A model generated the notes under the pieces. It made no database searches. It was not told the origin of the DNA and saw only the letters and a list, made by a program, of their open reading frames with translations. Positions 15,680 through 55,199 of a stretch of DNA of 64,000 nucleotides are shown piece after piece; within the stretch, counting starts at the first letter, position 1; each line of letters begins with the position of its first letter. This DNA is from Parcubacteria group bacterium Gr01-1014_8 (GTDB lineage: Bacteria > Patescibacteriota > Minisyncoccia > Phycocordibacterales > UBA2100). A program made the translations under genes and the position numbers. The stretch covers positions 1 through 64,000 of the forward strand of contig VMGC01000001.1 in NCBI GenBank assembly GCA_007376385.1, given 5' to 3'.

Positions 15680-15747
15680 GGTGGATTGCCCTCACTCTCG
15701 CTGATTGTGGAGAGTGGCAATGGTGCAAGCTGGTACGTGCAACGGGT

Positions 15748-19068: not shown

Positions 19069-19111
19069 GCGGGGGAGTGAATCAATAATGCAATAAGTAT
19101 GCCATCCAGCC

Positions 19112-19139
19112 CCAGTTTTGCTGCAGCAAAACTGGGGCT
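19112..19139. promoter_or_regulatory. perfect 14-bp-arm palindrome CCCCAGTTTTGCTG-CAGCAAAACTGGGG in the divergent intergenic region
   Basis: Read directly. Located 45 nt upstream of the start of the 1106-aa gene (minus strand) and about 75 nt upstream of the ORF 19215 (+). Confidence 0.55.
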
Positions 19140-19214
19140 GGGTGTGGACAGTTTTTTCGGACGATACTTCCTCGCCGCGACCACCTCACCCGCAACGTTG
19201 CGCGGAACGACAAC

Positions 19215-19580: not shown

Positions 19581-19591
19581 TCCGTAAGACC

Positions 19592-19990: not shown

Positions 19991-20168
19991 CGTAACAGCG
20001 CACCGGATATCCAGCATCGACACACTCCCCAAACGAGGTAGCGAGAGGCGCGTCCGGCGGCGTAAATCCGAATACCGAAGCAATCGCTTGCCACAGCCCG
20101 ACGAAAAATCCTAAAAAGGAAGGCATATTGCACGCTTGGGCGAATTACGCACGACGCCCTAAGGCACC

Positions 20169-23156: not shown

Positions 23157-23202
23157 GTTACGAAAGACTACAATGATGCACACAGTATAGCGCACATTAT
23201 TC

Positions 23203-37221: not shown

Positions 37222-37920
37222 CTAGAAGTATTGATTACACTGCGGTGTCGGGAGCGGAAGACTTTGGACGCACATCCCTGTGTACCATGTTGCTGGTCCA
37301 CCTGGATATGAACGCTGGTATCCGCTGCATCCATGCGTCTGCCAGATCTTACAGTTATACGGCATGTTAGAAGGGTCCGAAGATGACGTTTGCGTCGGTG
37401 CTCCCGCCGGGCAATATGAAGTACACAACCACTGACCTCCCTTGCATTGAAATACAGGCAAAACCGCTGTCCTGTTTGGGCAAATCCCCGATGGAAGACA
37501 CAAACTCACGCCAGTCGAGGCTGTCCAGCCACCTTCTGACGTCATCCCTTCAGCGTATATCTGACCATTATATGTACAGGATGCGCCGGTTGTTGTTTGC
37601 GTTGTTGTCGTTGACGGCTTGCAGGCATAACCAGTCACACAGTTGTACGAGTCGTACGAGACTGTGAGCGCTGTTGAACACGATGGTGGCATGACCAGAG
37701 TGCACCTGTGCGTCTGTGCAACTTGCTTTTGCAGGTTAGCTATCTGCGTTTGCAATTTTGTTATCTCCTGTGTCAATTTCAAGACGAGATCTTTTTGCAA
37801 TTGTATTATCTGCTGGAATAGCGCGATTATCTGCGATTGCAGGTCGGTACTCTCGGCAGCTGACACCATGGGAGCAATGAGAAGGAAGCAAATGCCGATC
37901 GCCGTTAGAAGCTTCGCCAT
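37222..37920 (-). CDS. secreted protein with long heptad/coiled-coil segment and Cys-rich C-terminal half
   Basis: Signal peptide MAKLLTAIGICFLLIAPMVSA. LQSQIIALFQQIIQLQKDLVLKLTQEITKLQTQIANLQKQ, then 12 cysteines. Confidence 0.6.
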   Translation of the reverse strand: MAKLLTAIGICFLLIAPMVSAAESTDLQSQIIALFQQIIQLQKDLVLKLTQEITKLQTQIANLQKQVAQTHRCTLVMPPSCSTALTVSYDSYNCVTGYACKPSTTTTQTTTGASCTYNGQIYAEGMTSEGGWTASTGVSLCLPSGICPNRTAVLPVFQCKGGQWLCTSYCPAGAPTQTSSSDPSNMPYNCKIWQTHGCSGYQRSYPGGPATWYTGMCVQSLPLPTPQCNQYF

Positions 37921-37927
37921 AATTCTG

Positions 37928-39466
37928 CTACGGCGTAATGTTGATATCTTGAGGCGGATAGTAAACACCCGTCACGGTTGGCGGCGTAGCAAGGAGAACA
38001 ATAACATTTCCATATATGTCTGTGGTGAACCACCTGCCCTCGCGGCACATGTACAAATGCTCTGTTTGGAATTGATTTGCGCCCGAGTATGCCCTCTGCC
38101 CATTCGTGAAGACGATCCCATTGGCGCTCACGCAGAGCGAGCCCGTGCCGTACGGAACGTATCCATACTGACTGTCCGAACTCCACATGCCATTTTGACA
38201 GGTGAGTGTCACCGATGATGATCCTGTCAAAAGAGCGCATATATTTTCGTTTGGGAAGTCCCGACATGTCTTACCGTTCCCCCCGGAGGGATACGCAGAG
38301 TCGAACAGATTTGGACCCGGCGGAAGCGTGTACGATTGCCCATTGCCGTACACAGTGCCGTTTATCACACACGAATTTACGTCTCCCGTAAGATACCCTG
38401 AACCGATCGAGGGAATGGCGACCCACGTTCCGCCCATGCACTGCAAGAATGGATAACTTGTGCATGAAGAGCTTGATGATGCAGCGCACGCTGGACTTGC
38501 GGTCACTTCCCCATCAGGGTACGTCTTGCTGTTCAGTTTGCATGAACTCCCTCCGATCCCGATATTCGTAAGGTCCGGATCATTCACCTGAACAGAAAGT
38601 GTCGCGGTCGTATCTGCACCACTCGCGTCTTTGGCAAAAACCACGATCGTGAATTTTCCGGTTGAACTATACGCGTGCGAATAGGAGACGGCTGAGCTGT
38701 ATGGTGTGCCCTCGCGAGAGATGTTCAATAACTGGGAAAGAGAAGAACCCTCATCTCCCCACACAACGCTAAAATTAACCACGTTTCCTTCAGGATCGCT
38801 CCCGCTGACCCTCCATGTATTGCTTTTGTTGATGTCAACGGTTGTGGGACCGACAACGGAAGAAATAATAGGAGGCTTGTTGATGGGCGTTACTGTCGTG
38901 TCGACTGCCGACACACAGGTCCATCCTACATGGCAACCCTTCGGGTCATTGTTCTTTTCCCATGTACCTGTACACGTCAACACTGGCTGCGGTGGCGGTG
39001 TGAGGCACTGATTGCTCGGAGGGGGAGGACGCGTACAGTATGTGCTTATCACATACTGGAACGTTCGAGCTCCAAACACGCCGCCATCCGCCGCCTGTGA
39101 AATAATCCCCACTTTCAGCTGAAATTGAATAAGTCCATTCTCTGTTATTGGCCCGAAAAACCCCGTGATGTCTACACTGAAATATCCCTGACTTTTCAGA
39201 AATAGCTGCAACGCTTCAACATCGCCACCGCTATCGCCGCGTTTCAATGGAAATCGTGATATCGAACAAATAACATTCCCGCCAGCGGGCGGTGCAACCT
39301 CTGTGCTTCCCCCTGCTGCGGCAATTTTTGCTTGCAGCTGTGCGATTTGGGCAAGAAGCACTTCTATCTGCGCTTTTACCTCATCAGCAGTGAGTGCGCT
39401 TGAGATAACTGGAACCAAGATAAGCCCCGCGAGAGATGCGCACAAAGCGCGCTTGAAAGTGCTCAT
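37928..39466 (-). CDS. secreted cell-wall-binding protein (signal peptide, alanine-zipper, PG_binding_1-like, PKD-type module, Cys-rich modules)
   Basis: MSTFKRALCASLAGLILVPVISSA. QIEVLLAQIAQLQAKIAAAGG. GDSGGDVEALQLFLKSQGYF ... GFFGPITENGLIQFQ. VVWGDEGSS ... HAYSSTGKFTIVV. Confidence 0.8.
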   Translation of the reverse strand: MSTFKRALCASLAGLILVPVISSALTADEVKAQIEVLLAQIAQLQAKIAAAGGSTEVAPPAGGNVICSISRFPLKRGDSGGDVEALQLFLKSQGYFSVDITGFFGPITENGLIQFQLKVGIISQAADGGVFGARTFQYVISTYCTRPPPPSNQCLTPPPQPVLTCTGTWEKNNDPKGCHVGWTCVSAVDTTVTPINKPPIISSVVGPTTVDINKSNTWRVSGSDPEGNVVNFSVVWGDEGSSLSQLLNISREGTPYSSAVSYSHAYSSTGKFTIVVFAKDASGADTTATLSVQVNDPDLTNIGIGGSSCKLNSKTYPDGEVTASPACAASSSSSCTSYPFLQCMGGTWVAIPSIGSGYLTGDVNSCVINGTVYGNGQSYTLPPGPNLFDSAYPSGGNGKTCRDFPNENICALLTGSSSVTLTCQNGMWSSDSQYGYVPYGTGSLCVSANGIVFTNGQRAYSGANQFQTEHLYMCREGRWFTTDIYGNVIVLLATPPTVTGVYYPPQDINITP

Positions 39467-39587
39467 TCCATCAATCGTAACGCATAAAACTCATATCTTG
39501 TCCGCATAGTGTGGATTGCAAGCTTACCCCAGCGGTATCTCGTGCGAGAATAGGGTTATTATCCGAATTACTCGTCATTCTTTTTTC

Positions 39588-42449
39588 ATGAAAAAGAAAC
39601 TTATTGTTGGCGTCTTACTTTTTGCGCTTATGCCTATCGCGGTGCTTGCGCAAACGAATGAAGAAAGGATCGCGAGTCTTCTTGCGCAAATAAATGCGCT
39701 CACTGCTCTCCTAGCCCAGATGCAGGGAAACACGCAAACTGCCCCGGCTGCCGGAACGTATGGAATTCTTCGCGGAATTCCATCGCTCGTGCTCACCCGA
39801 AATCTAGGGCCCGGCGATACGGGACCTGACGTATCGCGATTGCAAGCGCACCTCGCACTTGACCCAAATATTTATCCGGAAGGATTAGTGACGGGCGGAT
39901 ATCGCAACCTCACGACTGCTGCCGTCAGACGTTTCCAAATAGCGTGCAATATCATTTCATATGGTGACCCAAACACGACAGGATTTGGACGTGTCGGGCC
40001 GGTGACCAGACGCGCACTTCAGTACGGATGCGCTGGCACTCCAACCCCTATCCTGTATCCAACACCGACTCCTCCGCAATCTTCAATAGCCCCAACGTCG
40101 GGACAACCTCCACTGAACGTCGCGATCACTGCTTCGTTTCCCACCATTTCATGCGACGTCGCGGGCGGAGTGAACCAGATCTACCGGCTACAGCTTGGTG
40201 ATGGCACCTTCCAAGAGCTCTATGTATTCACACAAGGAAGAGTGAGCGGAGAGTGCGGGAGAGTCGTAACGAAAACGGTATACCACTTATATACAAAAAC
40301 CGGGACGCACACCGTCATGTTAGAAGAAATGGGTCCGACAGGGGAAGGAGGGTTCGCCGTTCTTTCATCAAAACAGATAGGAACGGTGCACGTGGGCGGT
40401 ACTGCCACACCAACGCCGCCGCCCGGCACATCATACGGCATCCAAGTGCGCCTCCAGAACGGAACGAGCGCGGTTGCTCGCGGCAACGCACTCCTCATCA
40501 ATTGGGACCCGACTGTCATTATTCCTCCATCAAACGCTGCGGTGCGACTCGAATTGAGGCGCGCATCCGACAACACGCTTGTCGGCGAAGGCGGTATCGT
40601 CAACGACCTTGCGATGAACGGCTCGTATGTGTGGAACGTCCCAGTATTCTCCTCTTCGTGCTCGCTTGGCAATGGCCAGCTGTGTTCCAACCAAATAATC
40701 GACAACCAAGACTACCATATACGCGCTGTGCTGTACCAGCCGCGCGGTTCTTGCTTCGGAACTGCATGCAACAATTCTCCAACAATTCTCGCTACAGGCA
40801 GAACTGATTCATTCACCATCCTGCCCACCGGAAGCGCGACTGGAGGAGCACTGCGCGCTAATCCGTCGTCCGGCTCATCGCCTCTCATGGTTTCGTTCAA
40901 TGCCGATGTAAACGCTACGGGTTCGTGTTCTGCGAGCACCAATTCAATTAACTTTGGAGACGGAAGTCTGTGGGAGAATCTGCAAGTCGCCGCAAATACA
41001 TGCAGGCCGCAGACGTTCGTTGTCAACCACACCTATACAGGAAACGCGACGTACACCGCGAAACTCTACAACGTCGCAAGCTCTTCCGTAACGAACAGCA
41101 CCAATCCGATCCACTCGACCACAATCACCGTTTCTGACGGCAGCGGCGCGGGTGGAATGGGCTCGCTTCTCGTGCACGCAGACGGCAGTGACGGCGCAAC
41201 GTCATTCCCGGATAGTTCATCGACAAACAACACGATCACGCGCAATGGGAACGCCCAAATAGATACTGCTCAATCAAAATTCGGCGGTGCGAGCGCGCTC
41301 TTCGACGGGAGCGGCGATTACCTGTCGGTTCCAGATAGCAGCAACTGGTATTTCGGTACCGGCGACTTCACGGTGGACTTTTGGCTTAGACTTAACGGTT
41401 TAGCGGCAACGAACGGTATATTTGGGCAAGGAAGCGGCAGTAATGCGTACCGAATGTATATCGCGTCAGACGGCAGCGTTGTCTTCCAAGTATGGAACGG
41501 CGGCGTAAACACGATCGTACTCTCCGCAGGAGCAGGCACGTTCTCAACCGGTTCGTGGTATCACCTAGCGCTTGTCCGCAATGGAAATTCATTCGCGCTG
41601 TACAAGAACGGTTCATCGATAGCGAGCGTATCCGACTCGGATGCAATGCCTGATTTCGCAGCGCCATTCACCATCGGCGCGTCGGACGGAACAAGCTTTG
41701 TATTGAACGGATGGATAGATGAATTCCGCGTCGTCAAAGGAAGCGCTGCATGGACATCAAGCTTCTCCGTGCCGACAGCTCCATACGGCAGCAATCCGGT
41801 GGTTGAAGGAAATTCCATCAGCTACAACAGTCCGGGTACATTCACATTCACGACTCCTTCTTCCTACAGTTCCATTACTGTGACGCTCTGGGGTGGAGGA
41901 GGAGGTGGAGGAGGAGGCAACGGTACAGTAGAAGGAAGTGGAGGAAATGGCGCAAACGGCGGTTCATCCACGTTCCAAAGTTTAGCGGCGGCAGGTGGAA
42001 GCGGCGGGAGTGGTGTTGTCGGTGGAGCAGGCGGTACAGCTTCCGGAGGCGATGCAAACACATCAGGAAACTCAGGCGGCAGTGCAAACGGCGTAACGAG
42101 CGGCGCAGGAGGAAGCGCGCCAAATGGCGGCGGAGGGGGGAGCGCGGTTACAAGCGGTAATGGCAATGCAGGCACCGCGCCCGGTGGTGGAGGAGGAGGT
42201 GGAGCATATGCAGGCGGCGGAGGTTCAGGCGGGTATGTACGCAAAACGTACTCATCGGGATCGCTGTCAACTAACTCCTCTGTCTCTCTCGCAGTGGGAA
42301 GTGGTGGTAGTGGAGGAGTAGGGGGTATATGTCATTATGGTGATTTACTCAAAGTCTGCGATCGAAGCGGCGACTGGCCTCCAAGCGGTGGAGATATGGT
42401 CTCTGGTGGCAGCGGCGCATCTGGACGAGTAACGATTACGTGGCAGTAA
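39588..42449 (+). CDS. large secreted protein: PG_binding_1-like, PKD-type modules, LamG/concanavalin-like domain, long glycine-rich C-terminal region
   Basis: MKKKLIVGVLLFALMPIAVLA. IASLLAQINALTALLAQMQ. GDTGPDVSRLQAHL ... GYRNLTTAAVRRFQ. INFGDGSLWENL ... HTYTGNATYTAKL. LFDGSGDYLSVPDSSNWYFGTGDFTVDFWLRL ... YHLALVRNGNSFALYKNG is LamG-like. About 250 aa of GGxG repeats. Confidence 0.85.
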   Translation: MKKKLIVGVLLFALMPIAVLAQTNEERIASLLAQINALTALLAQMQGNTQTAPAAGTYGILRGIPSLVLTRNLGPGDTGPDVSRLQAHLALDPNIYPEGLVTGGYRNLTTAAVRRFQIACNIISYGDPNTTGFGRVGPVTRRALQYGCAGTPTPILYPTPTPPQSSIAPTSGQPPLNVAITASFPTISCDVAGGVNQIYRLQLGDGTFQELYVFTQGRVSGECGRVVTKTVYHLYTKTGTHTVMLEEMGPTGEGGFAVLSSKQIGTVHVGGTATPTPPPGTSYGIQVRLQNGTSAVARGNALLINWDPTVIIPPSNAAVRLELRRASDNTLVGEGGIVNDLAMNGSYVWNVPVFSSSCSLGNGQLCSNQIIDNQDYHIRAVLYQPRGSCFGTACNNSPTILATGRTDSFTILPTGSATGGALRANPSSGSSPLMVSFNADVNATGSCSASTNSINFGDGSLWENLQVAANTCRPQTFVVNHTYTGNATYTAKLYNVASSSVTNSTNPIHSTTITVSDGSGAGGMGSLLVHADGSDGATSFPDSSSTNNTITRNGNAQIDTAQSKFGGASALFDGSGDYLSVPDSSNWYFGTGDFTVDFWLRLNGLAATNGIFGQGSGSNAYRMYIASDGSVVFQVWNGGVNTIVLSAGAGTFSTGSWYHLALVRNGNSFALYKNGSSIASVSDSDAMPDFAAPFTIGASDGTSFVLNGWIDEFRVVKGSAAWTSSFSVPTAPYGSNPVVEGNSISYNSPGTFTFTTPSSYSSITVTLWGGGGGGGGGNGTVEGSGGNGANGGSSTFQSLAAAGGSGGSGVVGGAGGTASGGDANTSGNSGGSANGVTSGAGGSAPNGGGGGSAVTSGNGNAGTAPGGGGGGGAYAGGGGSGGYVRKTYSSGSLSTNSSVSLAVGSGGSGGVGGICHYGDLLKVCDRSGDWPPSGGDMVSGGSGASGRVTITWQ

Positions 42450-42513
42450 GAAAGGAATGCCAAAAACAAAAACCCGCATGTTCTGCGGGTCTTTGTTTTG
42501 CGAGTTACTAATA

Positions 42514-44190
42514 TTACGGACACACGAACTGACAGTTCGGTCCAGTGCGTCCTACCCATGTGCCGTTCGGACATTGCATGGCCTCCTGTGTGCAAGCGGT
42601 ATATATTTCACACTGACCTACGTAGAGAAATGCCGCGCCAGCTGCGTTCATGAAGCAACGATTACTGTATGTCGTCGGACCCGGTGTCGCTAACATGCAT
42701 GCAGGAATGGAATGACGACAGGCCGGCTCCGGCGGTTGACCGCATACCGGCGCATATTCACCGGTGCACGCCATACCGCCAGTCACATTAACCGTTGTTG
42801 AGGTCCTCGCTTCCTGCCCGGAAGCATTTCGCACAACGATCGTCACTGTATACACCCTCGCGAATGAATATGCGTGCGTGAATGTCGTCATTTGTACGAA
42901 CGGGCGTTCTGCCATGGATGCATTTGCAGGGATAGGATACGAGTTCTCGTCGCCCCACCGCACGCTATAGCTTAGCCGCTCATTTTCCGGATCCCATGCA
43001 TTCACATTCCACGTGCCGGTCGTATTCACGACGAGTGTCGTCGGGCCGGAGAAACCGGAAATAACGGGCGGTTTGTTGTTGGGAAATTCATCAAACCATG
43101 CCGTGCAGTACGGTGCTCTGTCGGGAGGAACAGTTCCCGGCGCCGGCGCGCACATCATCGCTACACAAATCGGCTCGCCTCCGGGAAACTCACGGTGGCA
43201 AGAGGTCCCGCATACTTTTCCATCGGTCCAGCGTTTGCACTGCGGATCGTTGGCAGGATCCTGCCAGCCTGCGCGGCACTCGCCTGCGTGCATGAATGAC
43301 GCGCCATCGGCTTCCATCATGCATCTGTTGCTGTATGTCTGTTGGATCGGATTGCACGGTGTCGTTATACAGACAATCGGTTTGGAACCGCACACAGGTT
43401 TATATTCTTTCGTGCACGCGACATCTCCGACATATACCTGGACTTTTCCTATAACTTCCCTGCTTATTGGCGCCATGCAACCTTGGGTTACTCCGCACGG
43501 GTTGCTTGTATGAACCAAGAGCGCCATGTAGGTACCATTGGATGTATACGTATGTGTGTTCGTCCCCGGTCTCTGACACCGATCTGTAGGCGCATAGCAA
43601 TTCGCTGCTGACTCGGTCGAACCATCACCGTACTCGATAATGTAATTATCTGCTGCTGAATGGAATCCGCTGATATTCGTGTAGAAGGTAACAGAAAGAG
43701 GAGCAGCGCCCCGTTGCGGAATAACTCTAAAATTCTCATTGCCCCCGCCGCCGCACCATATTCTGAGACGCTCACGCGACATGGGGCCGAATGCGCCGAT
43801 TGCCTGCACGCCTTCTGCTGCTTGCCACTTTGCCACCGCCTGGGTGGTCATGTGCCCAAAGTAGCCTGTCGCGTTCGCGGACAAATATCCCTGCTCATTC
43901 AAAAACTCCTGCAACGAACGAACGTCATCTCCATTCGTGCCTGTTGTCAAATTTCGAACGAGCACAGAACAGATACGATGCTTTGATGGCATAATCGAAC
44001 CTATAATGGGAGGAACTGGCGGCTGCCCGCGCAGTTCGTTCAGCTGTCTTGTGAGGTCCGCTATCTGGGCCATCAATCGCTGTACCTGGGACTGGAGATC
44101 ATCAACCGTGAGAGCTGAAACCGGCACAATACCGATGGAAAACACGAGCGAAGATGCGATGAGACCTCCTATGAGCGCCTTTTTAACCAT
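42514..44190 (-). CDS. secreted cell-wall-binding protein with PKD-type modules and two Kazal-like Cys-rich domains
   Basis: MVKKALIGGLIASSLVFSIGIVPVSA. LQSQVQRLMAQIADLTRQLNELRG. PG-binding-like GDDVRSLQEFLNEQGY ... GYFGHMTTQAVAKWQ. IIEYGDGSTES ... HTYTSNGTYMALL. EYKPVCGSKP ... TYSNRCMMEADGASFMHAGEC and EYAPVCGQ ... TYSNRCFMNAAGAAFLYVGQC follow the Kazal pattern. Confidence 0.8.
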   Translation of the reverse strand: MVKKALIGGLIASSLVFSIGIVPVSALTVDDLQSQVQRLMAQIADLTRQLNELRGQPPVPPIIGSIMPSKHRICSVLVRNLTTGTNGDDVRSLQEFLNEQGYLSANATGYFGHMTTQAVAKWQAAEGVQAIGAFGPMSRERLRIWCGGGGNENFRVIPQRGAAPLSVTFYTNISGFHSAADNYIIEYGDGSTESAANCYAPTDRCQRPGTNTHTYTSNGTYMALLVHTSNPCGVTQGCMAPISREVIGKVQVYVGDVACTKEYKPVCGSKPIVCITTPCNPIQQTYSNRCMMEADGASFMHAGECRAGWQDPANDPQCKRWTDGKVCGTSCHREFPGGEPICVAMMCAPAPGTVPPDRAPYCTAWFDEFPNNKPPVISGFSGPTTLVVNTTGTWNVNAWDPENERLSYSVRWGDENSYPIPANASMAERPFVQMTTFTHAYSFARVYTVTIVVRNASGQEARTSTTVNVTGGMACTGEYAPVCGQPPEPACRHSIPACMLATPGPTTYSNRCFMNAAGAAFLYVGQCEIYTACTQEAMQCPNGTWVGRTGPNCQFVCP

Positions 44191-44360
44191 ACGAGAGAAA
44201 GAGTGATAAATAATGCCGTAATCATAACAGTTCTGTATGTGTAGACGCGCGTGGGGACATTCCCTTACGGACGGCGTAGAGCGAGCAAAATACAACAAAG
44301 AACTTTTGTATGTTCGAGCCAAGGAGTCCGAACCCTGTCATGTAACGCAGGATTACAGGG

Positions 44361-45737
44361 CTAGAATGTCAGATCTTCCGCCCAATTTGTGTGCGCGCAA
44401 TGTAAATTAATCGCCGTGTCCTCTTGTGCCATCGCACAAACCCCGGGGGCGCCAGCAAAATCTTTACAGATGAGCGAACCGGCTGTTGTTTTGACGGTTT
44501 TGGTTGACATGTGAGAACCACAGGACGAACCAACGAGAGCCATGTAGGTTTGCAATCCCGCCATAGTTGGATTGCTAGCTGGCGGGTAATGTGTCACACA
44601 ATTTGCGCCGGCGGCATCGCATCGATACCATTTGCCGATTACACATTTCAATGTTGGAACTGACATCGGCACACTGCCTTTGAAATACGGATCCGGAGAA
44701 ACGGTATTGCCGCTCGGTACGAGCTTGCTCCCCCAGGGAGTGATGCAGTACGTTACTCCTTCCGGAACAAATATGAGCGAACCCTCCTCGGGAACATCGC
44801 CGTCTGGAGCGGGCGGCTCTGAAATACATCCAGCCCCGCATGCAGGGTCAGAAGCGGCCACGACTTTCACTGTCACTGTTCCCTCTGCCTCTCCTCCCGA
44901 CATATCTCGCACTTTTACCGTAATAATATACGAACCCGTTGAGTAATACGTGTGCGTGAACGAACTTACGGACGAAAATACGCCTTCTCCTGCGAGTTTT
45001 TCGAGCGCATTAAGCGTTGAATTAGCTTCGCCCCATGATACGTGGAATGTGAGGCCGTCGCCATCCGGGTCAGTCGCTTTGATGGCCCATTTTCTCTCTA
45101 TTCCCGCCGCTATTGACGATGGCCCGCTGATATCATGAAGAACCGGCGGACGATTCGGCCCCTTTTGCGGTGCCGCACATTTCCAGGACGCGTTGCAGTT
45201 TTCGTCGTGTACTAATTCCCATTTTACACCGCAGCTTGCCGTCGGCGTTGTTGTCGCTACCGCAGGACAAACTGGCGTAGGCGTTGGAAGGAAAACGGGC
45301 TTCGGTGATAATTTTGCAAGGCATCTCTCCAGGATCTTCGCCCGTGTCCTAGGTCCCACAACGCCCCATCCGTTGAGACTCGGACTACCAAGCCACACGA
45401 TCCCGACATGTGCCTGCCAGTCTTGCACGGCTCTTTCTGTCAGCATCCCAAAAAAACCTGTTATCTCGACATTGAACACGCCTTCTTTTTTTAAGAAATC
45501 TTGCAAGGTCTTGACGTCATCCCCTTGAGATCCTCTCGTCAACGTTCGTGTAAATACCGGACATTGTGTTGCCGAAGGAGGAGCAGCTGGATCTTTAAGC
45601 TGATTTTGCAACAGAGCGATCTGCCCGAGCAATGCCTCTACTTGCGCCTGCATCTCCGGCACCGTGAGCGCCGCAGACACAAACGGAGAAGTGAGACACA
45701 CTGCAGCGACCCCGACAACAAAGGACAAAACACGCAT
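44361..45737 (-). CDS. secreted cell-wall-binding protein (alanine-zipper, PG_binding_1-like, PKD-type module)
   Basis: MRVLSFVVGVAAVCLTSPFVSA. MQAQVEALLGQIALLQNQL. GDDVKTLQDFLKKEGVF ... GFFGMLTERAVQDWQ. HVSWGEANST ... HTYYSTGSYIITV. Confidence 0.8.
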   Translation of the reverse strand: MRVLSFVVGVAAVCLTSPFVSAALTVPEMQAQVEALLGQIALLQNQLKDPAAPPSATQCPVFTRTLTRGSQGDDVKTLQDFLKKEGVFNVEITGFFGMLTERAVQDWQAHVGIVWLGSPSLNGWGVVGPRTRAKILERCLAKLSPKPVFLPTPTPVCPAVATTTPTASCGVKWELVHDENCNASWKCAAPQKGPNRPPVLHDISGPSSIAAGIERKWAIKATDPDGDGLTFHVSWGEANSTLNALEKLAGEGVFSSVSSFTHTYYSTGSYIITVKVRDMSGGEAEGTVTVKVVAASDPACGAGCISEPPAPDGDVPEEGSLIFVPEGVTYCITPWGSKLVPSGNTVSPDPYFKGSVPMSVPTLKCVIGKWYRCDAAGANCVTHYPPASNPTMAGLQTYMALVGSSCGSHMSTKTVKTTAGSLICKDFAGAPGVCAMAQEDTAINLHCAHTNWAEDLTF

Positions 45738-45757
45738 GCATACAGTATGACTTCTCA

Positions 45758-46477
45758 TCAAATAGATTTTTTCCTTGCTGTGGATACGCGCGCGGCAAGC
45801 GCTAGTTCTGCGTACGGAATATCATCGGGACTCGTAATATGAAGTCGGAATGAGATCTCGACAGCAGTTAATGGAATTTTGAATGCCTTTGATGCAGCTA
45901 ACATTGTCTGCGGCAAGCCGTACTCCGTACGACCTTCTAAGAGCACTGGTTCTATTTCGAAAATGCGCGTATCAAGAACGTACAGCCCGACGCCCCCTAC
46001 ACCAGGCCCCCTCGTGTGCTTATCGGCCTCGATGATCTCCGTGATAGTGCCATTGGCATCGATATGCACGCTTGATGACATGTCTAATTCGGGCATGTGC
46101 ATTACGGCGAGAGCCCATTCTTGCTCAATACATTTTCTAACGTCTTCTTTTGTATGAATATCGTCCGCATTGGTCGCAAGAAATTTTCCTTTCAGAATTC
46201 CCTTTGCCTGCAAAAGTGCATCCATAGTTCCCCCCACGGGATTCTCTTGCTCAACGTACGTAATTTTCCTTCCGTTATAGGAATTGCCAAATTGCGCTCG
46301 TATCAATTCTTGCAAGTATCCGACGATGAGTATGACCTCGTCAACTTGATCAGGCAACGCATCAAATTTGTGCTCCAAAAGTGTCTTTCCAGATACTCGA
46401 AGGAGCGGCTTTGGGATATTTTTTGTTTTCTCCCCCATCCGAGTACCCCGACCGGCAGCGAGAATGACAGCCTGCAT
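45758..46477 (-). CDS. sugar-phosphate nucleotidyltransferase (NTP-transferase domain)
   Basis: MQAVILAAGRGTRMGEKTKNIPKPLL is the GxGxR nucleotidyltransferase P-loop. Confidence 0.8.
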   Translation of the reverse strand: MQAVILAAGRGTRMGEKTKNIPKPLLRVSGKTLLEHKFDALPDQVDEVILIVGYLQELIRAQFGNSYNGRKITYVEQENPVGGTMDALLQAKGILKGKFLATNADDIHTKEDVRKCIEQEWALAVMHMPELDMSSSVHIDANGTITEIIEADKHTRGPGVGGVGLYVLDTRIFEIEPVLLEGRTEYGLPQTMLAASKAFKIPLTAVEISFRLHITSPDDIPYAELALAARVSTARKKSI

Positions 46478-49615: not shown

Positions 49616-51112
49616 CTATTGCTCTCTCCATAATACAAATTTGTAGTCGGCCGATGCAGATGGAGTAAAAGGCGGTGGTGCGAATGCGAGTATTCGATCG
49701 TAGTTGTCTATACGAAGGTTGTACCCGGAACAATACACGCCCGGGGAACCACAGAGCCATTTGGTGCCGACGCGTTTGTTGGAGATGACCGAGCCATTTG
49801 TCGTGAGTTGTGATTGCTGTACATATCCATCGTATGCCGAAGGTACTTGGTTCGAGCCCGACGTCGTGTAGTAGTTGCGGCCAAATAGCCCCCCTTGCGC
49901 GACAAAAATGCCACGGATCGTCATCTGGTCCGGCGAAACAAGCGGCACGAGAATAGAATCCTCAGCAATGACCGTGAGCCCGGTCGATCCATCTGCTGTC
50001 GCATAATTAACGTTGTTATTCAGAATAACACTCGGCGCGTACGCACCAGTATCTGCCGTAACAATTGTTATTTTTCCTGACACCGTTCCTTCTATCCATG
50101 TTTTTGCGCTGACAAAAATAACCGCGCAATCCGACGGCGGCGTAAATGTGCCGAGTGAAACTTGTGTGGAAATGATGTCGTAATTCATATACCACGTCGG
50201 CGAGTGCCCTCCGTTATACCCCCACACACCTGAAGTACCAGTAACGCGATAGATAGTGACAGTTCCGTTTGAATTGAACACAAGCCTGTATCCGCGCTGA
50301 TCAGAAGCAGCCACTGATGAATAGGTTCCTCCTTGTTGCACATTATCAACTCGCGTGGTTGTGCCGCTGAGCAGTATTCCATCGAGTTGCGCGTAGCCGC
50401 GAAGCGCGCTGAAGTTTGAGCCGATGCCTTCAAAACTTACCTGGGGAACGGGATAACTCCAGAGCGGACTTCCGGTCCCCGCGCCAAATACGCCCGCCGC
50501 ATTATTATTTGTCGGGGAACATCCGAAACTTGCACCACATATCCATGTCGAAACCGAACTTGTGACATCGGAATTATTTGTTCCGTCCATTCTCACGCCG
50601 CCGTTCGAATGATACGGACCCGTGATATTTCTGTCTGATCCCGCCCAGACATTTTGATTCACAATGTGTGAATACTCCGCGACTGAAGGTCGCATATAAC
50701 GCGCAATAAGTGTGCGTTTAAAGACCGGGTTTTGGTCAGCCCTGCCTTCCGATGCGATGTTTGCGTACTGCGGTACGCCGCAGGCAGTATTCAACGTTGT
50801 CGTAACTGCCGCTTCTCCTACCCGCCCACCCTCTGGATCTTCGACGACATACGTAACTGGCGTTTCAAGGCCGGCGCCGGATAGCATGACATTTGGCGTG
50901 TGCACAAGAAACCATCGATAATACTCAAGTCCTGCTTCTGCTATTTGAATTGCCTGTTCCCGTGCGAACAATGCGCGTCCGTACTTGGCCTGCATGAAGC
51001 TGTAGCTCGTTATTGTTCCCAAAATAAGCGCAAAAATACCCATGTATGCAACAACTAGAATGATGGTCACTCCTCGCGACGCACTCCCTTCGTGTTTCTT
51101 TTTTCTGTTCAT
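49616..51112 (-). CDS. PilX-like / large pilus-associated protein with N-terminal TM anchor
   Basis: MNRKKKHEGSASRGVTIILVVAYMGIFALILGTI resembles the PilX_N anchor. 498 aa extracellular body. Directly downstream of two prepilin-type genes. Confidence 0.6.
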   Translation of the reverse strand: MNRKKKHEGSASRGVTIILVVAYMGIFALILGTITSYSFMQAKYGRALFAREQAIQIAEAGLEYYRWFLVHTPNVMLSGAGLETPVTYVVEDPEGGRVGEAAVTTTLNTACGVPQYANIASEGRADQNPVFKRTLIARYMRPSVAEYSHIVNQNVWAGSDRNITGPYHSNGGVRMDGTNNSDVTSSVSTWICGASFGCSPTNNNAAGVFGAGTGSPLWSYPVPQVSFEGIGSNFSALRGYAQLDGILLSGTTTRVDNVQQGGTYSSVAASDQRGYRLVFNSNGTVTIYRVTGTSGVWGYNGGHSPTWYMNYDIISTQVSLGTFTPPSDCAVIFVSAKTWIEGTVSGKITIVTADTGAYAPSVILNNNVNYATADGSTGLTVIAEDSILVPLVSPDQMTIRGIFVAQGGLFGRNYYTTSGSNQVPSAYDGYVQQSQLTTNGSVISNKRVGTKWLCGSPGVYCSGYNLRIDNYDRILAFAPPPFTPSASADYKFVLWREQ

Positions 51113-51115
51113 AGT

Positions 51116-51700
51116 CTATTTCAAGTTCCTAAGCGCCGCGGTCGAGCGAAGTGTTAATTGGTTCGGCAACCGATTTGGATCAACGTTCACAATAACGTTC
51201 ATGGTAATGAAACGCACATACGCTATCTGAGCAAAATTTGTTATCTCTGCACCGTTCATATCGTAGTATTGGAATGTCGTTGTCGCTTGCTCGATGTTAC
51301 GAACTGTCTCAGAAATTACCGATGTCGTTTGGGCTGCACCGTACACAGGAGGATCACCCGTGGGGTCTGTTACGTCACGAAGCAATGAAATGCCTTGCAC
51401 ATAGTATCGCACTCTCTCAATAAGCGGATCTGAATCGATGTCAGCGTAAAACGTAACCTCCTGGGGGCCAACCGCGGCAACAGGATATGCGCCATTTGAC
51501 GCATAGGATATCTCTCGCATCGTTTTCACCATCTCTTCGATGCCGCGCTGCGCTGCATTTACAGCGCTTGCTTGTTCTATAACGTATGTATTCGTGCGAT
51601 AGAAGTAAAGTACCGATGAAACAATGGCGAGCATCGCGAACGTAAAGACAGTAATGGATACCAACACTTCAATAAATGTGATGCCGCGTGAGTAGTTCAT
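51116..51700 (-). CDS. type IV pseudopilin (prepilin-type N-terminal cleavage/methylation domain)
   Basis: MNYSRG|ITFIEVLVSITVFTFAMLAIV: a G|(F/I)T(L/F)IE class III signal with Glu at +5. Confidence 0.8.
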   Translation of the reverse strand: MNYSRGITFIEVLVSITVFTFAMLAIVSSVLYFYRTNTYVIEQASAVNAAQRGIEEMVKTMREISYASNGAYPVAAVGPQEVTFYADIDSDPLIERVRYYVQGISLLRDVTDPTGDPPVYGAAQTTSVISETVRNIEQATTTFQYYDMNGAEITNFAQIAYVRFITMNVIVNVDPNRLPNQLTLRSTAALRNLK

Positions 51701-51701
51701 A

Positions 51702-53906
51702 CTAATTTAATACGGGAGACAGCCGCGAGGTGCCTGAAACGTCGACGTCGGTTGCTGTGTACGGCTGGAATCCGGCAGCTGTTATGTCTATTGAATATGG
51801 GTTACCGCCGCCCACCGAACCACTCGAAAGTTCGATGAAAAAGGCCTGCCCGCAGGAGTCGGTGGTCATCGTGACGTTGTATCCGAGAGAGCGATATAAG
51901 CGCACTGTCGCGTTTGCTATGAGTCCGCCGTTGCCACGAACATCGACGAGCAGCGAGTTTGTCGTGTGCGGCGCAAGAATAAGTTTCGTTGTTGCATATT
52001 CATTCGGTGCAAGGCTCTCCGGCTGCGGCGCACACGAGGAAGCGATGTCATAACCCGTCGAAGCATCCACCGTTGTCGTGTACGTGTCCCATTCGAGATT
52101 GCCGATACCGACGCCTGCCGTCGGACCCGTAGAAAGGGTTGTCGTCGAATACTTATAGAATGTGCCTCCTGGGCCATTCCCTATTGATTTATTACCTTGA
52201 AGACCAAATGTAATGTTTGGAAGAGGAAGAGGTCCCACGTCATGTGTGACTTCCCACGAAAGAACTTCCGGCGTCTCGCTTTCGTTTGCCGTGCCAAGTG
52301 ACGCATGTAAAGAAACACCTGGGTACGTTGTCGTTGAAATACCCGAAATGTCTACCGGCGATAGGCTGAATCCGGAACTATTACCCGGCAGTTCGGAGTC
52401 CGGAATGAGCGAGCTGCCGTCACTGGAGTACAGACGATAGGCAATGTTTGTCTGCGCCGGTCTCGTATCGACAAAGCGGAGTTGCTTCCACCGCACCAGA
52501 TATTGCGGTGCGATGGCTATCGAGCGCGCTTCGCCCGGAGTTGAATATGGTCCGGGCGCACCGACCAATCGCAAAAGTCCTACAGCAACTTCTGTGTTCG
52601 TGGTGGTAGCAATTTGAGAAGCATCCGCAAACGTATCCGTCGTTGTTGATGTCTTTATTTGCTCGAATGTTTGTACATTTTTTATAGAAACCAGATCGAT
52701 AGAGAATGGAAACGAGGTCGTTTGGTTAAGAGCGACTGTCAGATGCCCTGGCGTCGGATTGGTAATTTCTGCCGTTGCATCGTATGTCTGCGAAGTTGAG
52801 TAACCACTTTTTGTGACCACAATCTTGTAGCCAGCGCTGGCTGGAGCTCCGATGATCGTAACAAGTCCATCATTATCGGAAAAAAGAAGCATGTTTACGA
52901 CCGGATTGGTCGTGGCATTGATGACGGTAACCTGTGCATTCGCGACTGGCGCAGATGCTGCGTCCAAGATTGAAAGAGCGAGAGTCCCGCCCGGTACTGC
53001 TTGTTCAATGCCTACCGGCGAGACTCGTGTCGTCAACGCGACTTTTCGCAACCCGCCATTGTGCGCAGACCATGAAACCTCTGTCTTAACCACTTTAAAG
53101 TCCGCTGGATTCGCATTCGTGTCGGCGGCGCCTGTACCGTCCTTCGGATCATCTCCATACAAAATTATGGTACGGCGAATATATGAGATGCCATTCAATG
53201 TTGCTGTCTCCGTCGCCACGATCGCGCCAGATGGAATTCCCCCAACCGTGCCAACAGAATCGTAGGGTAAGCTGCGAATGAATTCTTGCCGTTCGTTCGC
53301 AAGAGCTATCGCCCCCGCACGGGCCTTGTTATTCGTGACAACATCGACTGAAAGCTGAAACGCACCGGAGATACCGACAAATACGAGCATGAGAAGCGCC
53401 GTGCCAACGATGGTATCGATGAGCGTCACGCCGCGCGATTGGCGGTGTTCACGTCGTCTTGAATACATTTCTGGAATGGTTCTTGTTATCACATGTTTTA
53501 ACGAGTCAGTCGTCGGCATAAATACGCCTTTCGGAAGATATATCCGCCATTGTGAATACCCGGGAACCTCGTTCCATCCATGCATCGCAGGAATCTTTTC
53601 GGCCCCCCTGTGCTCTTCGTCCATATGTAAATATAGCAGCCCCGGTTTCTTCGGTGTGGCAGACTCCAAAAGACGATTGGTTTTTTCCATCATCAGAGGA
53701 AACATGCCCCTTCTCTGGAACTCCGGATAAACCATAGTTTGCTCGGAATAGTAATAGCCATCCAAAGAATCAAACTCGCGATATGCAACAGGTATATTGT
53801 CAGATTTTGTGCGCCAGTCGATTCGCCAACCATCTTTTGTATTGCTGATGATTTCTTTCAACTCTGGCAAAGGCTCTTTGCCCGGATGAATCGTCTCGTC
53901 GCTCAT
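51702..53906 (-). CDS. large prepilin-type protein with an about 146-aa GNAT-like N-terminal extension preceding the prepilin cleavage motif
   Basis: ...MYSRRREHRQSRG|VTLIDTIVGTALLMLVFVGI is a class III prepilin signal at residues about 147-175. Upstream VYPEFQRRGMFPLMMEKTNRLL resembles GNAT motif A (Q/R-x-x-G-x-G/A). No stop between. The ORF start lies 3 nt after the pilC stop. Confidence 0.65.
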   Translation of the reverse strand: MSDETIHPGKEPLPELKEIISNTKDGWRIDWRTKSDNIPVAYREFDSLDGYYYSEQTMVYPEFQRRGMFPLMMEKTNRLLESATPKKPGLLYLHMDEEHRGAEKIPAMHGWNEVPGYSQWRIYLPKGVFMPTTDSLKHVITRTIPEMYSRRREHRQSRGVTLIDTIVGTALLMLVFVGISGAFQLSVDVVTNNKARAGAIALANERQEFIRSLPYDSVGTVGGIPSGAIVATETATLNGISYIRRTIILYGDDPKDGTGAADTNANPADFKVVKTEVSWSAHNGGLRKVALTTRVSPVGIEQAVPGGTLALSILDAASAPVANAQVTVINATTNPVVNMLLFSDNDGLVTIIGAPASAGYKIVVTKSGYSTSQTYDATAEITNPTPGHLTVALNQTTSFPFSIDLVSIKNVQTFEQIKTSTTTDTFADASQIATTTNTEVAVGLLRLVGAPGPYSTPGEARSIAIAPQYLVRWKQLRFVDTRPAQTNIAYRLYSSDGSSLIPDSELPGNSSGFSLSPVDISGISTTTYPGVSLHASLGTANESETPEVLSWEVTHDVGPLPLPNITFGLQGNKSIGNGPGGTFYKYSTTTLSTGPTAGVGIGNLEWDTYTTTVDASTGYDIASSCAPQPESLAPNEYATTKLILAPHTTNSLLVDVRGNGGLIANATVRLYRSLGYNVTMTTDSCGQAFFIELSSGSVGGGNPYSIDITAAGFQPYTATDVDVSGTSRLSPVLN

Positions 53907-53908
53907 AT

Positions 53909-55126
53909 TTAGATGACTTCCGACAGTTGGTAGATAGGAGAGATCATCGAGACCGCGAAAAATCCGACTGCGCCGCCGATGAAAATCATCAGGAACGGCT
54001 CGATGATCGTCGACATATCTTTCGTCTTTCTATCGACCTCATCCTCATAATAGATGGCGAGACGCTTTAACATTTCCGTCAGTTGTCCTGTCTCTTCCCC
54101 GACCGACATCATCTCCCCCACAAATGCCGGATACATGTCCTCGCGCCGTGTAAATTCTGCGGAAAGGGGCTCTCCTTTTCCAACGGCCGCCTTTGCCTTC
54201 TGAACTATGTCCTTGAAGTAACCGTTCTGGATAACGTCACTCACGATATCGAGCGACGTTAAGAGGTCAACACCAGACGAGAGGAGCGATGCAAGCGTCC
54301 GCGAGGTACGTGCGGCATTCACTTCTCGAACTAATACCCCAATAAGGGGTACTTTCAAGAAAAACCAATCAGCAAAACGTTTTCCAACAACTGTATGAAC
54401 TGCAAAATAAATCGTGCCGACGAACAATACAACAAGCGCAAGCGCAAGCACCGTGTATTCCACAAGAAAATCACTGATAGCAATTATTGTCCTCGTCGAG
54501 GCCGGCAGATCTGCGCCCATTTCGGCGAATGTCGAGGCCAGCGTCGGTACGACTTTTATCATCATCAAGACGCCAATACCGACAATCGCAACAAGAACGA
54601 TCACTGGATAAATAAGCGCCCCGCGTATCTTCTTTTTGAGGTTGTACATCCTCTCCATCTGGTCGGCGATGACGGTGAGCGATTGAGGCAAGTCCCCCCC
54701 TTCTTCGCCAGCGCGAACCATCGCAATGAAAAGCTTCGAAAATATATACGGGAATTTTGCAAGCGCGGCATGCATCGCGTCCCCTCGCCGCACTTCGCTC
54801 GAGAGCTGCGAAATGACATTCGAGAGTTTTGGATTCCTCGTTTGGCGCTCCAGTACTGAAAGCGCTCGTGAGAGCGCAAGGCCTGCCGTGAGCATAGCGC
54901 CTAAATTTCTCGCAAACAGAATGCGTTCGTATTCCGTGACCGTAGAGATCTTCGCATTCCAGTAGGCGATACTGAGCCACTGATTCGCCCTGTCTTCATC
55001 CACAGAAATGATGCGCCCGCCTTCACGGCGCACGACGCTGTACAATTCGAAACGATCGCGCGCTTCTGCGACGCCCTTATAGACTTCGCCGTCCGGCTTT
55101 TCAGCAGTGTACGTAAACCGAGACAT
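53909..55126 (-). CDS. pilC: type IV pilus assembly platform protein PilC/GspF
   Basis: Two T2SSF repeats and three TM segments. 405 aa. Confidence 0.9.
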   Translation of the reverse strand: MSRFTYTAEKPDGEVYKGVAEARDRFELYSVVRREGGRIISVDEDRANQWLSIAYWNAKISTVTEYERILFARNLGAMLTAGLALSRALSVLERQTRNPKLSNVISQLSSEVRRGDAMHAALAKFPYIFSKLFIAMVRAGEEGGDLPQSLTVIADQMERMYNLKKKIRGALIYPVIVLVAIVGIGVLMMIKVVPTLASTFAEMGADLPASTRTIIAISDFLVEYTVLALALVVLFVGTIYFAVHTVVGKRFADWFFLKVPLIGVLVREVNAARTSRTLASLLSSGVDLLTSLDIVSDVIQNGYFKDIVQKAKAAVGKGEPLSAEFTRREDMYPAFVGEMMSVGEETGQLTEMLKRLAIYYEDEVDRKTKDMSTIIEPFLMIFIGGAVGFFAVSMISPIYQLSEVI

Positions 55127-55199
55127 TCATTCGATTATACCGTCTAAGCAACAGAAAGAAGCGCGTGCTGTACACAATCGCTCACTGTCACAACATGGA

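Follow-up and report, generated by a model that had tools for sequence, protein, structure and literature searches.

Introduction

The described proteins closest to the subject of this work are canonical serine-protease inhibitors of the Kazal family (MEROPS I1; PF00050), in particular the Galleria silk protease inhibitor 2 (SPI2; PDB 4hgu/2m5x), infestin and the ovomucoid third domain. Here, we describe five neighbouring genes, G1 to G5, for predicted secreted proteins in a 64,000-nt stretch of DNA from the uncultured, Kaiserbacteria-type Parcubacteria bacterium Gr01-1014_8 (contig VMGC01000001.1, positions 1 to 64,000; this whole stretch is called the window below). One of them, G4, carries two Kazal-like modules whose first loop, C-T-K-E-Y-K-P-V-C, closely resembles that of the ovomucoid domain OMTKY3, C-T-L-E-Y-R-P-L-C. 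The TY-x-N-x-C motif of Kazal domains is also kept, and the specificity-determining P1 residue of the second module is hypervariable across the family. G4 differs from the known inhibitors in being bacterial, from the Candidate Phyla Radiation (CPR), and not animal; its modules sit within a 558-aa multidomain protein that is predicted to be tethered to the cell wall, they contain a 14-aa insert with an extra Cys pair, and the protein of the window scores below the Pfam threshold.

The second group for comparison is formed by the pacifastin inhibitors (MEROPS I19; PF05375), for example locust PMP-C/LCMI-II (PDB 1gl1/1pmc). Most G4 homologs share with them the pattern CN-x-C ... G ... C-T-L-[KR]-A-C, including the reactive-site tripeptide, whereas the fourth Cys is replaced by Arg in the G4 family, a C-terminal Cys is added, and the module is degenerate in G1 and in the G4 of the window. 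A 2026 structural survey described pacifastin-like domains in CPR and myxobacterial genomes that were found by structure only (PMC13388995). Its bacterial examples come from Woesebacteria, Uhrbacteria, WS6 and myxobacteria, and Kaiserbacteria are not in the list.

The front end of the five proteins has other precedents. PG_binding_1 proteins (PF01471) such as the phiKZ gp144 endolysin, SleB and the Streptomyces Zn D-Ala-D-Ala carboxypeptidase use this three-helix domain as a non-covalent cell-wall targeting module, as is predicted here. At our locus, in contrast, the domain precedes non-enzymatic display modules and not a hydrolase, a coiled coil lies before it and, in most members, a Cys pair lies around it. 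Braun's lipoprotein Lpp likewise has a short N-terminal heptad helix beside a murein-binding function, a likeness that is compositional only: G1 to G5 have no lipobox Cys, no Ala core and no C-terminal Lys for covalent linkage. By analogy, ecotin and the oomycete Kazal-like proteins EPI1 and EPI10 may share the role proposed for G4, that of a canonical inhibitor placed at a cell boundary against foreign proteases; however, ecotin has an unrelated fold, the EPI proteins belong to another organism and architecture, and the heads at our locus are predicted to be peptidoglycan-tethered and stand in tandem with PKD spacers. CPR bacteria have been described as lacking an outer membrane.

Every domain type at the locus is known and the genes are already public; what is new is their combination and its conserved architecture. 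We favour, with moderate confidence, the reading that a Patescibacteria family of Kaiserbacteria type, made up of secreted surface proteins tethered non-covalently to the wall, has undergone a lineage-specific tandem expansion at this locus, and that its member G4 would be a canonical serine-protease inhibitor with several heads. Very little is known of the envelopes of CPR/Patescibacteria, whose surface proteins are mostly annotated as hypothetical. The recurrent export, coiled-coil and peptidoglycan-binding front end is a predicted wall-tethering device of the lineage, a core gene with animal-type canonical inhibitor loops suggests protection of the surface against extracellular proteases, and a fixed chromosomal slot expands from one to five paralogs between genomes. 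If inhibition is true, a class of wall-anchored multi-headed inhibitors would be added to bacterial envelope biology, and the debated deep ancestry of pacifastins would gain bacterial relatives detectable by sequence; if not, the annotation of five hypothetical proteins is still improved.

Results

The five genes

All five open reading frames (ORFs) were found exactly where an earlier sequence-only reading of the window had placed them and, as it had stated, a single member, G3, is on the opposite strand.

37222..37920, minus strand: G1, 232 aa (TSC86933.1, G01um10148_38)
37928..39466, minus strand: G2, 512 aa (G01um10148_39)
39588..42449, plus strand: G3, 953 aa (G01um10148_40), the sole plus-strand member
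42514..44190, minus strand: G4, 558 aa (G01um10148_41), the conserved core gene
44361..45761, minus strand: G5, 466 aa from TTG or 458 aa from ATG at 45737 (TSC86937.1, G01um10148_42)

Locus tags G01um10148_38 to _42 are those of the NCBI deposit for Parcubacteria bacterium Gr01-1014_8, and the sequence of the window is also contained in the ENA metagenome contig ERZ27284378 k139_153431. In databases, the five products are hypothetical, uncharacterised or "peptidoglycan binding domain-containing" proteins.

G4 carries two Kazal-like modules

From its N-terminus, G4 consists of a signal peptide, a helix, a P-rich linker, a PG_binding_1 domain between Cys74 and Cys146, a PKD-like domain, Kazal-like module 1, a pacifastin-like module, a PKD domain, Kazal-like module 2 and a Cys tail. 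Its AlphaFold2 model has a mean predicted local distance difference test (pLDDT) score of 81.8. At least 429 homologs exist, with 36–62% identity among the matches listed. The three candidate inhibitor heads are as follows.

43276..43422, minus strand: Kazal-like module 1 (aa 257–305), reactive loop C259-T-K-E-Y-K-P-V-C267 with P1 = Lys261
43087..43269, minus strand: pacifastin-like Cys module (aa 308–368), between Kazal-like module 1 and the second PKD domain
42610..42774, minus strand: Kazal-like module 2 (aa 473–527), loop C-T-G-E-Y-A-P-V-C with P1 = Gly here

That G4 contains two Kazal-type domains had been proposed in the sequence-only reading, and profile and fold searches agree, mainly at the level of the family. 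Kazal_1 matched 70 of the 79 aligned family members at E <= 0.01 (best E 9.1e-10). When the 79-sequence alignment was compared with PDB sequences, Kazal inhibitors were returned for both modules (E 8e-4 to 0.5), and nearly all matches were of this family. True inhibitors, SPI2 among them, gave the best matches in structure and sequence, and the modules show the alpha+beta fold of Kazal domains. A Foldseek search of PDB with the full G4 model yielded only PKD/Ig matches and was uninformative on the small modules.

Both modules present the canonical reactive loop (C-T/P-P1-E-Y-x-P-V/L-C), as CTKEYKPVC and CTGEYAPVC, together with the supporting Asn. Around P1 the first loop is almost invariant: Thr260 is found in 105/107 homologs, Glu262 in 106/107, Tyr263 in 105/107 and Pro265 in 107/107, and Asn288 of the TY-x-N-x-C motif is invariant in the 79 homologs. 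P1 of head 1 is Lys in 94 of 107 homologs (88%). At head 2, P1 varies widely across the family (Met 33, Ala 28, Leu 16), a hypervariability typical of true Kazal inhibitors. The disulfide framework is altered in that both modules are without the C1–C5 disulfide, and a 14-aa insert with an extra Cys pair (C274 and C279 in module 1) sits between C3 and the TY strand. The active inhibitor SPI2 likewise lacks the C1–C5 disulfide. The two modules are related to each other: a hidden Markov model (HMM) of module 1 matched module 2 at E 1.5e-13, and a 63-nt direct repeat with 71% identity links them at the DNA level (42611–42673 and 43277–43339).

A pacifastin-like module between the Kazal-like modules

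In most G4 homologs the third module reads C-x6-CNSCSR-x2-PGGPAM-CTLRAC. Pacifastin_I (PF05375) matched 54 of 79 homologs (best E 1.4e-5), and the CNSCSR..G....CTLRAC of one homolog's module aligned with locust PMP-C CNTCRCGADGKSAACTLKAC at E 0.0022; of the 11 PDB matches listed for this homolog module, 10 are pacifastin-family peptides. The CTLRAC of most homologs corresponds to the PMP-C reactive site CTLKAC. In the window the module has diverged, with CGTSCHR...CVAMMC in place of the family consensus CNSCSR...CTLRAC, and no structural match for the pacifastin-like module was obtained. We regard the pacifastin-like assignment as probable for the G4 family and as inconclusive for the G4 of this window.

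Kazal domains across prokaryotes

Kazal domains had been called rare in bacteria by the sequence-only reading, which is contradicted by a scan that covered one genome per species with three patterns, CT[KM]EYxPVC among them. The scan gave at least 600 Kazal-pattern matches, and tblastn confirmed matches in several CPR phyla, Proteobacteria and Bacteroidota. The confirmed matches with Kazal modules only are from Peribacteria, Gracilibacteria, Absconditabacteria, Magasanikiibacteriota, Hellea, Caulobacterales, Cellvibrionaceae, Ensifer, Paludibacter and archaea, and the insert-bearing variant seen in G4 is widespread in prokaryotes. A literature search found no paper linking Kazal domains to CPR biology. 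In an Absconditabacteria locus (L038), a pacifastin-like module directly follows a Kazal-like module; since the same pair is present there, it predates the Kaiserbacteria family. L038 and two further loci of Gracilibacteria/Absconditabacteria type (L031 and L078, the latter labelled Paludibacter) have Kazal-like modules with in-frame TGA, consistent with genetic code 25.

A shared front end of signal peptide, heptad helix and PG_binding_1

All five proteins start with a classical Sec signal peptide, in which a K/R n-region and a hydrophobic core lead up to an AxA-type cleavage site, predicted at VSA/A, SSA/L, VLA/Q, VSA/L and VSA/A (slash, cut). A heptad helix begins 1–6 residues past this site, with I/L/V/M/F at 71–100% of the a/d positions versus 10–21% at the remaining positions; it comprises 3–4 heptads in G2 to G5 and 7 in G1. 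A heptad segment close behind the signal peptide had thus been recognised correctly for all five in the sequence-only reading. Its description as an alanine zipper has to be replaced: the a/d core is I/L/V/M without an Ala core, and the front-end helix is an Ile/Leu zipper. The elements of the front end extend as follows.

G1: signal peptide aa 1–21; heptad helix aa 23–70
G2: signal peptide aa 1–24; heptad helix aa 25–50; PG_binding_1 approximately aa 66–144
G3: signal peptide aa 1–21; heptad helix aa 22–46; divergent PG_binding_1 aa 69–170
G4: signal peptide aa 1–26; heptad helix aa 27–55; PG_binding_1 aa 74–146 (43753..43971, minus strand; Pfam E 1.3e-10), flanked by the invariant Cys74 and Cys146
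G5: heptad helix aa 32–57; PG_binding_1 aa 67–147

In the AlphaFold model of G4 the helix spans residues 29–54, with block pLDDT of ~ 82–89 over residues 31–50. PDB searches with the helix matched generic or designed coiled coils only. One lead, PDB 7o92, is the solved structure of residues 18–54 of a Candidatus Giovannonibacteria hypothetical protein, a stretch that likewise follows the signal peptide of a Parcubacteria protein. It matched the G4 N-terminal profile at E 0.45; it did not return with a helix-only profile, a literature search found no paper on 7o92, and we rejected it.

A Pro/Thr/Gln-rich linker, P-rich in G4, joins the helix to PG_binding_1 in G2 to G5; the linker of G1 is Thr-rich. 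The Pfam gathering score for PG_binding_1 is 23 bits and was exceeded by G2 (32.0), G4 (41.7) and G5 (35.3). G3 scored 17.0 bits, below this cut-off, and its residues 69–171 align over 107 aa, at 42% identity (E 9e-13), with the PG_binding_1 region of the window protein encoded at 8438–9925. In G1 the Pfam search found no PG_binding_1. The earlier count of four carriers among the five is therefore upheld, for G3 by homology. In a PDB profile search, the G4 domain matched SleB, a YkuD-family protein, endolysins and the PG-binding domains of L,D-transpeptidases (E 1.5e-7 to 1e-4), and the model shows its three-helix bundle (helices 88–99, 113–125 and 136–145, pLDDT 85–96). Cys74 and Cys146 are invariant in 79 G4 homologs; such a conserved pair brackets the domain in most members, and G3 is without the first Cys.

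BLAST comparison of the N-terminal regions of G2, G4 and G5 gave 35–38% identity over 117–148 aa (E 2e-14 to 4e-18), and the front end of G3 is 28–32% identical to the same three (E 5e-7 to 6e-12). Whether the N-terminal similarity would survive alignment had been set as a test beforehand; it extends beyond signal-peptide composition, and for G2 to G5 it is, judged from the alignments, true homology. Of the proposal that all five form one paralogous family, the part concerning G2 to G5 with their shared front end stands, whereas G1 has no BLAST similarity to the other four.

The same layout recurs in proteins of 429–1470 aa encoded by relatives, where PG_binding_1 is followed by a Cys and in most cases also preceded by one, and in the window protein 20169–23156 of a cluster upstream. 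A HMMER search with a profile of the cassette against 1.84 billion representatives gave 78,241 matches at E <= 1e-3, mostly proteins with 5–16 tandem PG_binding_1 repeats. Cys counts beyond residue 60 are even in all five proteins (12–28). None of the five C-termini (...CNQYF, ...DINITP, ...VTITWQ, ...CQFVCP and ...AEDLTF) has an LPXTG sortase motif or hydrophobic tail, and G1 to G5 have AxA-type sites with no lipobox Cys at +1.

A conserved core gene in a fixed slot

One gene order is conserved across ~ 19 distinct genomes of Patescibacteria: type IV pilus genes, TIM, PGK, (NTP_transferase), the slot, HIT (on the opposite strand), RecJ, DUF975 and RNase H. A G4 ortholog always occupies the slot. 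It stands there alone in 10 genomes, and the slot holds two cassette genes in 4 genomes, three in 2 and four in 1 (L023); the five of the window are the most seen. As in the window, a G5-like gene lies between NTP_transferase and G4 in L003, L011 and L023. The syntenic orthologs of G4 are full-length and 36–57% identical, and in the same loci PGK is 48–82% and RecJ 53–66% identical. G4 is thus a single-copy core gene, conserved to about the same degree as PGK and RecJ beside it; G1, G2 and G3 are rare accretions in the slot. Because G4 orthologs are only 36–57% identical, synonymous sites among them are likely to be saturated.

That the Kazal gene would be one of the variable cargoes, as had been supposed, does not agree with its full-length conservation, its at least 429 homologs and its fixed housekeeping slot. 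A slowly evolving envelope function fits G4 better than a host-specific effector, since the gene is fixed in the slot and about as conserved as PGK and RecJ. The locus as a whole looks like an old conserved core gene with in situ accretion of paralogs and mosaics. It does not resemble a mobile island, because there are no mobile genes or bounding repeats and the raised GC content tracks Gly/Cys/Pro-rich coding. Just beyond TIM and PGK, the window has a type IV pilus-like set (49616–56939, minus strand) of T2SSE/PilB, T2SSF/PilC, a CarboxypepD_reg protein, an N_methyl pilin and a 498-aa protein. The adjacency of pilus genes, TIM, PGK and G4 is kept in relatives whose flank extends that far (for example L002, L003, L005 and L006).

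PKD domains and the distal parts of the accessory proteins

PKD domains, overlooked in the sequence-only reading, were found in G2, G3, G4 and G5. In G4, PKD_4 scored 34.2 bits against a cut-off of 27 (Pfam; PF18911/PF00801), and Foldseek identified the PKD beta-sandwich with template modelling (TM) scores of 0.74–0.84 to collagenase ColG/ColH and archaeal PKD domains. G2 (23.1 bits) and G5 (25.6 bits) were just below the cut-off; both share 30–32% identity with the PKD region of G4 (E 6e-17 and 7e-16). Weak NCBIfam matches (E 0.007–0.03) relate the PKD regions to the CPR pilus protein PamR. The remaining features of the accessory proteins and the PKD extents are listed here.

G2: PKD aa 196–294; three Cys modules of ~ 45–70 aa within aa 307–483 (module HMM E 2e-18, 1e-17 and 2e-10)
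G5: PKD aa 203–300; Cys module aa 337–382 (module HMM)
G4: PKD-like aa 152–254; PKD aa 372–470
G3: signal peptide, helix, PG_binding_1, Ig/PKD-like domains, LamG aa 573–717, Gly-rich tail aa 721–953
41304..41738, plus strand: LamG/concanavalin-A-like domain of G3 (aa 573–717), Laminin_G_3 (PF13385), E 3.5e-22
41748..42446, plus strand: glycine-rich region of G3 (aa 721–953), 32% Gly
G1: signal peptide, 7-heptad coiled coil, Thr-rich linker, Cys-rich region with 14 Cys
37225..37380, minus strand: C-terminal module of G1 (aa 181–232, the last 52 residues), homologous to the G4-family pacifastin-like module, with 4/6 Cys

G2 and G5 are paralogous along their full length (29% identity over 455 aa, E 1e-44) and share a ~ 45-aa Cys module with the consensus SCTLDGvTvxHG...RTCxNGtLSG, present in three copies in G2 and one in G5. 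This module obtained no Pfam or PDB assignment, only weak VWC/FnI/Sushi-like hints (E ~ 0.1). In a search of 5.8 billion proteins, G2 had only 10 homologs.

The LamG call that had been made for G3 was confirmed by profile search (79.6 bits against a cut-off of 27.6); the region also matched LamG parts of phage structural proteins. The Gly-rich nature of the tail was likewise correctly described, although Gly_rich_2 (PF21722) scored 18.1 bits against a cut-off of 24.3 (E 0.0029, aa 748–795 only). A PDB sequence search for an ALK-type glycine-rich domain in the tail gave no match. Over 206 aa the tail shares 38% identity with the C-terminal end of a cassette protein of 1762 aa at locus L004, with an E-value that is not composition-corrected. 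This protein, whose gene (L004 2402–7690, minus strand) adjoins TIM in a relative, has the signal peptide, helix and PG_binding_1 front end, followed by a long Ig-like array and, at the C-terminus, a Gly-rich domain (precomputed PF21722); it is the nearest counterpart of the G3 tail. G3 itself has only two near-full-length homologs (39% identity, 83–84% coverage).

G1 gave no BLAST match to G2 to G5 and has no relative among metagenome contigs; it is an orphan gene. An HMM built from aa 308–368 of the G4 family matched its C-terminus at E 2.6e-9 among the 526 ORFs of the window, and BLAST found this module to be 34–38% identical to the pacifastin-like module of most G4 orthologs. This profile match shows that G1 draws on the same set of modules; its helix and its C-terminal module are all that ties it to the family.

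Gene spacing, signals and base composition

G1 begins 7 nt after the stop of G2, which suggests that the two are co-transcribed. G3 and G4 are convergent and 64 nt apart. Two starts are possible for G5: its longest ORF begins with TTG at 45761 and overlaps the NTP_transferase stop at 45758, whereas gene callers use ATG at 45737, and the gene begins directly after the NTP_transferase stop. One signal lies between G3 and G4:

42472..42490, plus strand: terminator-like hairpin followed by a T-run, a consensus match only, the match count in the region being not above the shuffled expectation

Promoter and terminator scans of the region as a whole gave counts that were likewise not above shuffled expectation. 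GC content is 54.7–54.8% over 40–44 kb (G3 and G4) versus ~ 48–51% in the flanks, for which Gly/Cys/Pro-rich coding is a sufficient explanation. Domain, PADLOC and repeat searches detected no catalytic, defence or mobile-element signals at the locus; PADLOC returned no defence-system match.

Discussion

A cell-surface location is the natural reading of G1 to G5, predicted as it is from signal peptides, PG_binding_1, PKD/LamG domains, even Cys numbers and the lack of a catalytic domain. In the mechanism that we propose, each protein would be exported by Sec and cut by signal peptidase I, so that a short Ile/Leu/Val heptad helix, probably oligomerising, would form the new N-terminus. After a Pro/Thr/Gln-rich linker, the disulfide-clamped three-helix bundle of PG_binding_1 would hold the protein on peptidoglycan, and PKD/Ig beta-sandwiches would serve as spacers and present the distal modules. 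The organism itself makes and remodels peptidoglycan, as it encodes a YkuD L,D-transpeptidase and S11 D-Ala-D-Ala carboxypeptidase fusion (689–2155, plus strand). G4, which we take for the ancestral gene of the slot, would display two Kazal-type and one pacifastin-like canonical (Laskowski-type) serine-protease inhibitor loops, and it is because of these loops that we propose it as an inhibitor. Bound to the wall, it may shield envelope proteins from extracellular or foreign proteases. Across the family, Lys at P1 of head 1 would point to trypsin-like targets, and Leu at P1 of the pacifastin-like head and Met/Ala/Leu at P1 of head 2 to chymotrypsin-, subtilisin- or elastase-like ones. G5, G2, G3 and G1 would reuse the front end or modules with other distal parts, namely Cys-rich VWC/FnI-like modules and LamG with a Gly-rich domain. 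These distal modules are probably ligand-binding, and a ligand-binding or adhesive role is plausible for G2, G3 and G5. That G1 is held at the wall only via its coiled coil, riding on the others, is speculation.

Several observations weigh against an inhibitor on the wall. The six-Cys Kazal framework (C1–C5, C2–C4, C3–C6) is not realised in either module, and the 14-aa insert lies beside the reactive loop. The G4 of the window matched Kazal_1 with only 16.1 bits (E 0.011) over 12 residues, below the gathering score of 21; it had no Pfam pacifastin match, and Foldseek with a sub-model of G4 gave no match. In this genome, head 2 carries Gly at P1 and the loop of the pacifastin-like module has degenerated to CVAMMC, so that at most head 1 looks, from its sequence, like a strong inhibitor here. 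Kazal-like domains of follistatin, agrin and SPARC are not inhibitors. No secreted serine protease was seen in the window, oligomerisation through the coiled coil and binding to peptidoglycan are themselves predictions from sequence and model, and the cassette-profile search was swamped by repeat proteins and gave no cassette-specific count.

Some of these points would be explained if the Kazal- and pacifastin-like modules did not inhibit and were, as in follistatin, agrin or SPARC, structural or ligand-binding units stabilised by disulfides, with G4 a structural envelope or matrix protein. The missing C1–C5 disulfide, the insert, the Gly at head 2 and the degenerate pacifastin-like loop agree with this, and the housekeeping context would suit a structural wall protein. 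We nevertheless consider it unlikely: residues of the loop whose structural role is confined to inhibition (P2 Thr, P1' Glu, P2' Tyr and the equivalent of Asn33) are 98–100% conserved and P1 Lys 88%, the best matches are true inhibitors including SPI2, and the CTLRAC of most homologs matches the PMP-C reactive site CTLKAC. The sequence-only reading had instead seen all five proteins as wall-anchored adhesins or effectors, with variable cargo that attaches to or manipulates a host cell in episymbiosis. We hold this possible but doubtful. A surface architecture of PKD, LamG and Cys-rich modules is typical of adhesins, and the accessory genes are sporadic and lineage-specific, with two near-full-length homologs for G3, 10 for G2 and none for G1. 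The slot varies from one to five genes between genomes, as expected for host-interaction genes, and the genome is a reduced one of CPR type in which a type IV pilus cluster adjoins the locus. G4, however, is about as conserved as its housekeeping neighbours (36–57% identity versus 48–82% for PGK and 53–66% for RecJ), unlike a diversifying host-specificity factor; no host is known for the lineage, the sequence reveals no binding specificity, and only taxonomy ties the locus to symbiosis. An anchor with differing cargo on the surface thus stands in so far as a shared export, coiled-coil and PG-binding cassette precedes differing C-terminal parts, but the Kazal gene is conserved and not variable. 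The evidence on G4 favours a wall-tethered protease inhibitor over an adhesin; that G2, G3 and G5 act as adhesins or effectors is conjecture, and so is the link to episymbiosis.

Two further explanations carry little weight. It is very improbable that G1 to G5 are peptidoglycan-remodelling hydrolases or regulators of these: SleB, endolysins, L,D-transpeptidases and PG hydrolases are indeed the matches of PG_binding_1, but these matches are restricted to the binding domain, none of the five has a catalytic domain by Pfam, NCBIfam or PDB profile search, and the rest of the sequence consists of PKD, LamG, Kazal-like and Cys-rich modules. Hardly credible is a horizontally acquired or phage-derived island, which the raised GC at 40–44 kb, the matches of the G3 LamG region to phage baseplate and virion protein families and the inversion of G3 relative to its neighbours might suggest. 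The slot and its core gene are syntenic over ~ 19 genomes; there is no integrase, transposase, tRNA or flanking repeat, only short repeats at chance level; the high GC falls on Gly/Cys/Pro-rich coding; the phage matches cover LamG alone, which is a generic fold; and paralogy within the locus (G2/G5, full-length) points to in situ duplication.

A wall-tethered inhibitor encoded by G4, with accessory paralogs beside it, is thus the reading that we prefer. We put forward one extension of it as decidedly unlikely in its full form: the G4 family would be a hitherto unrecognised, near-universal envelope component of Kaiserbacteria-type Patescibacteria, a peptidoglycan-tethered three-headed canonical serine-protease inhibitor in which PKD domains space out a Kazal head (P1 Lys), a pacifastin-like head (P1 Leu) and a second Kazal head (P1 Met/Ala/Leu), the helix common to all slot paralogs would drive the formation of homo- or hetero-oligomers, accessory proteins including G1 would assemble on the same wall-bound hub, and the slot would be an evolvable docking array.

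Secreted proteins and other genes upstream

The window contains another cluster of large secreted proteins (5672–23219, minus strand) of 607, 495, 910, 1106 and 995 aa, with PG_binding_1, PKD, SH3_3, Big_7 and Kre9_KNH domains. Its 607-, 495-, 910- and 1106-aa proteins carry the ~ 45-aa Cys module of G2 and G5, and the proteins encoded at 15748–19068 and 20169–23156 also bear the heptad helix behind the signal peptide. Further upstream (3225–5162, minus strand) lies the gene for a 645-aa secreted protein made of ~ 48-aa Cys-rich repeats (GPGGCxGxxECKxYCExxxHxEECxxFAxExGL). Pfam gave only spurious partial matches for it (HepT-like, Nif11), and Tandem Repeats Finder detected a 144-nt period at 4528–4847. 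Inside the cluster itself is a gene for an AAA_14 + DUF4143 ATPase with a helix-turn-helix (9989–11110, minus strand).

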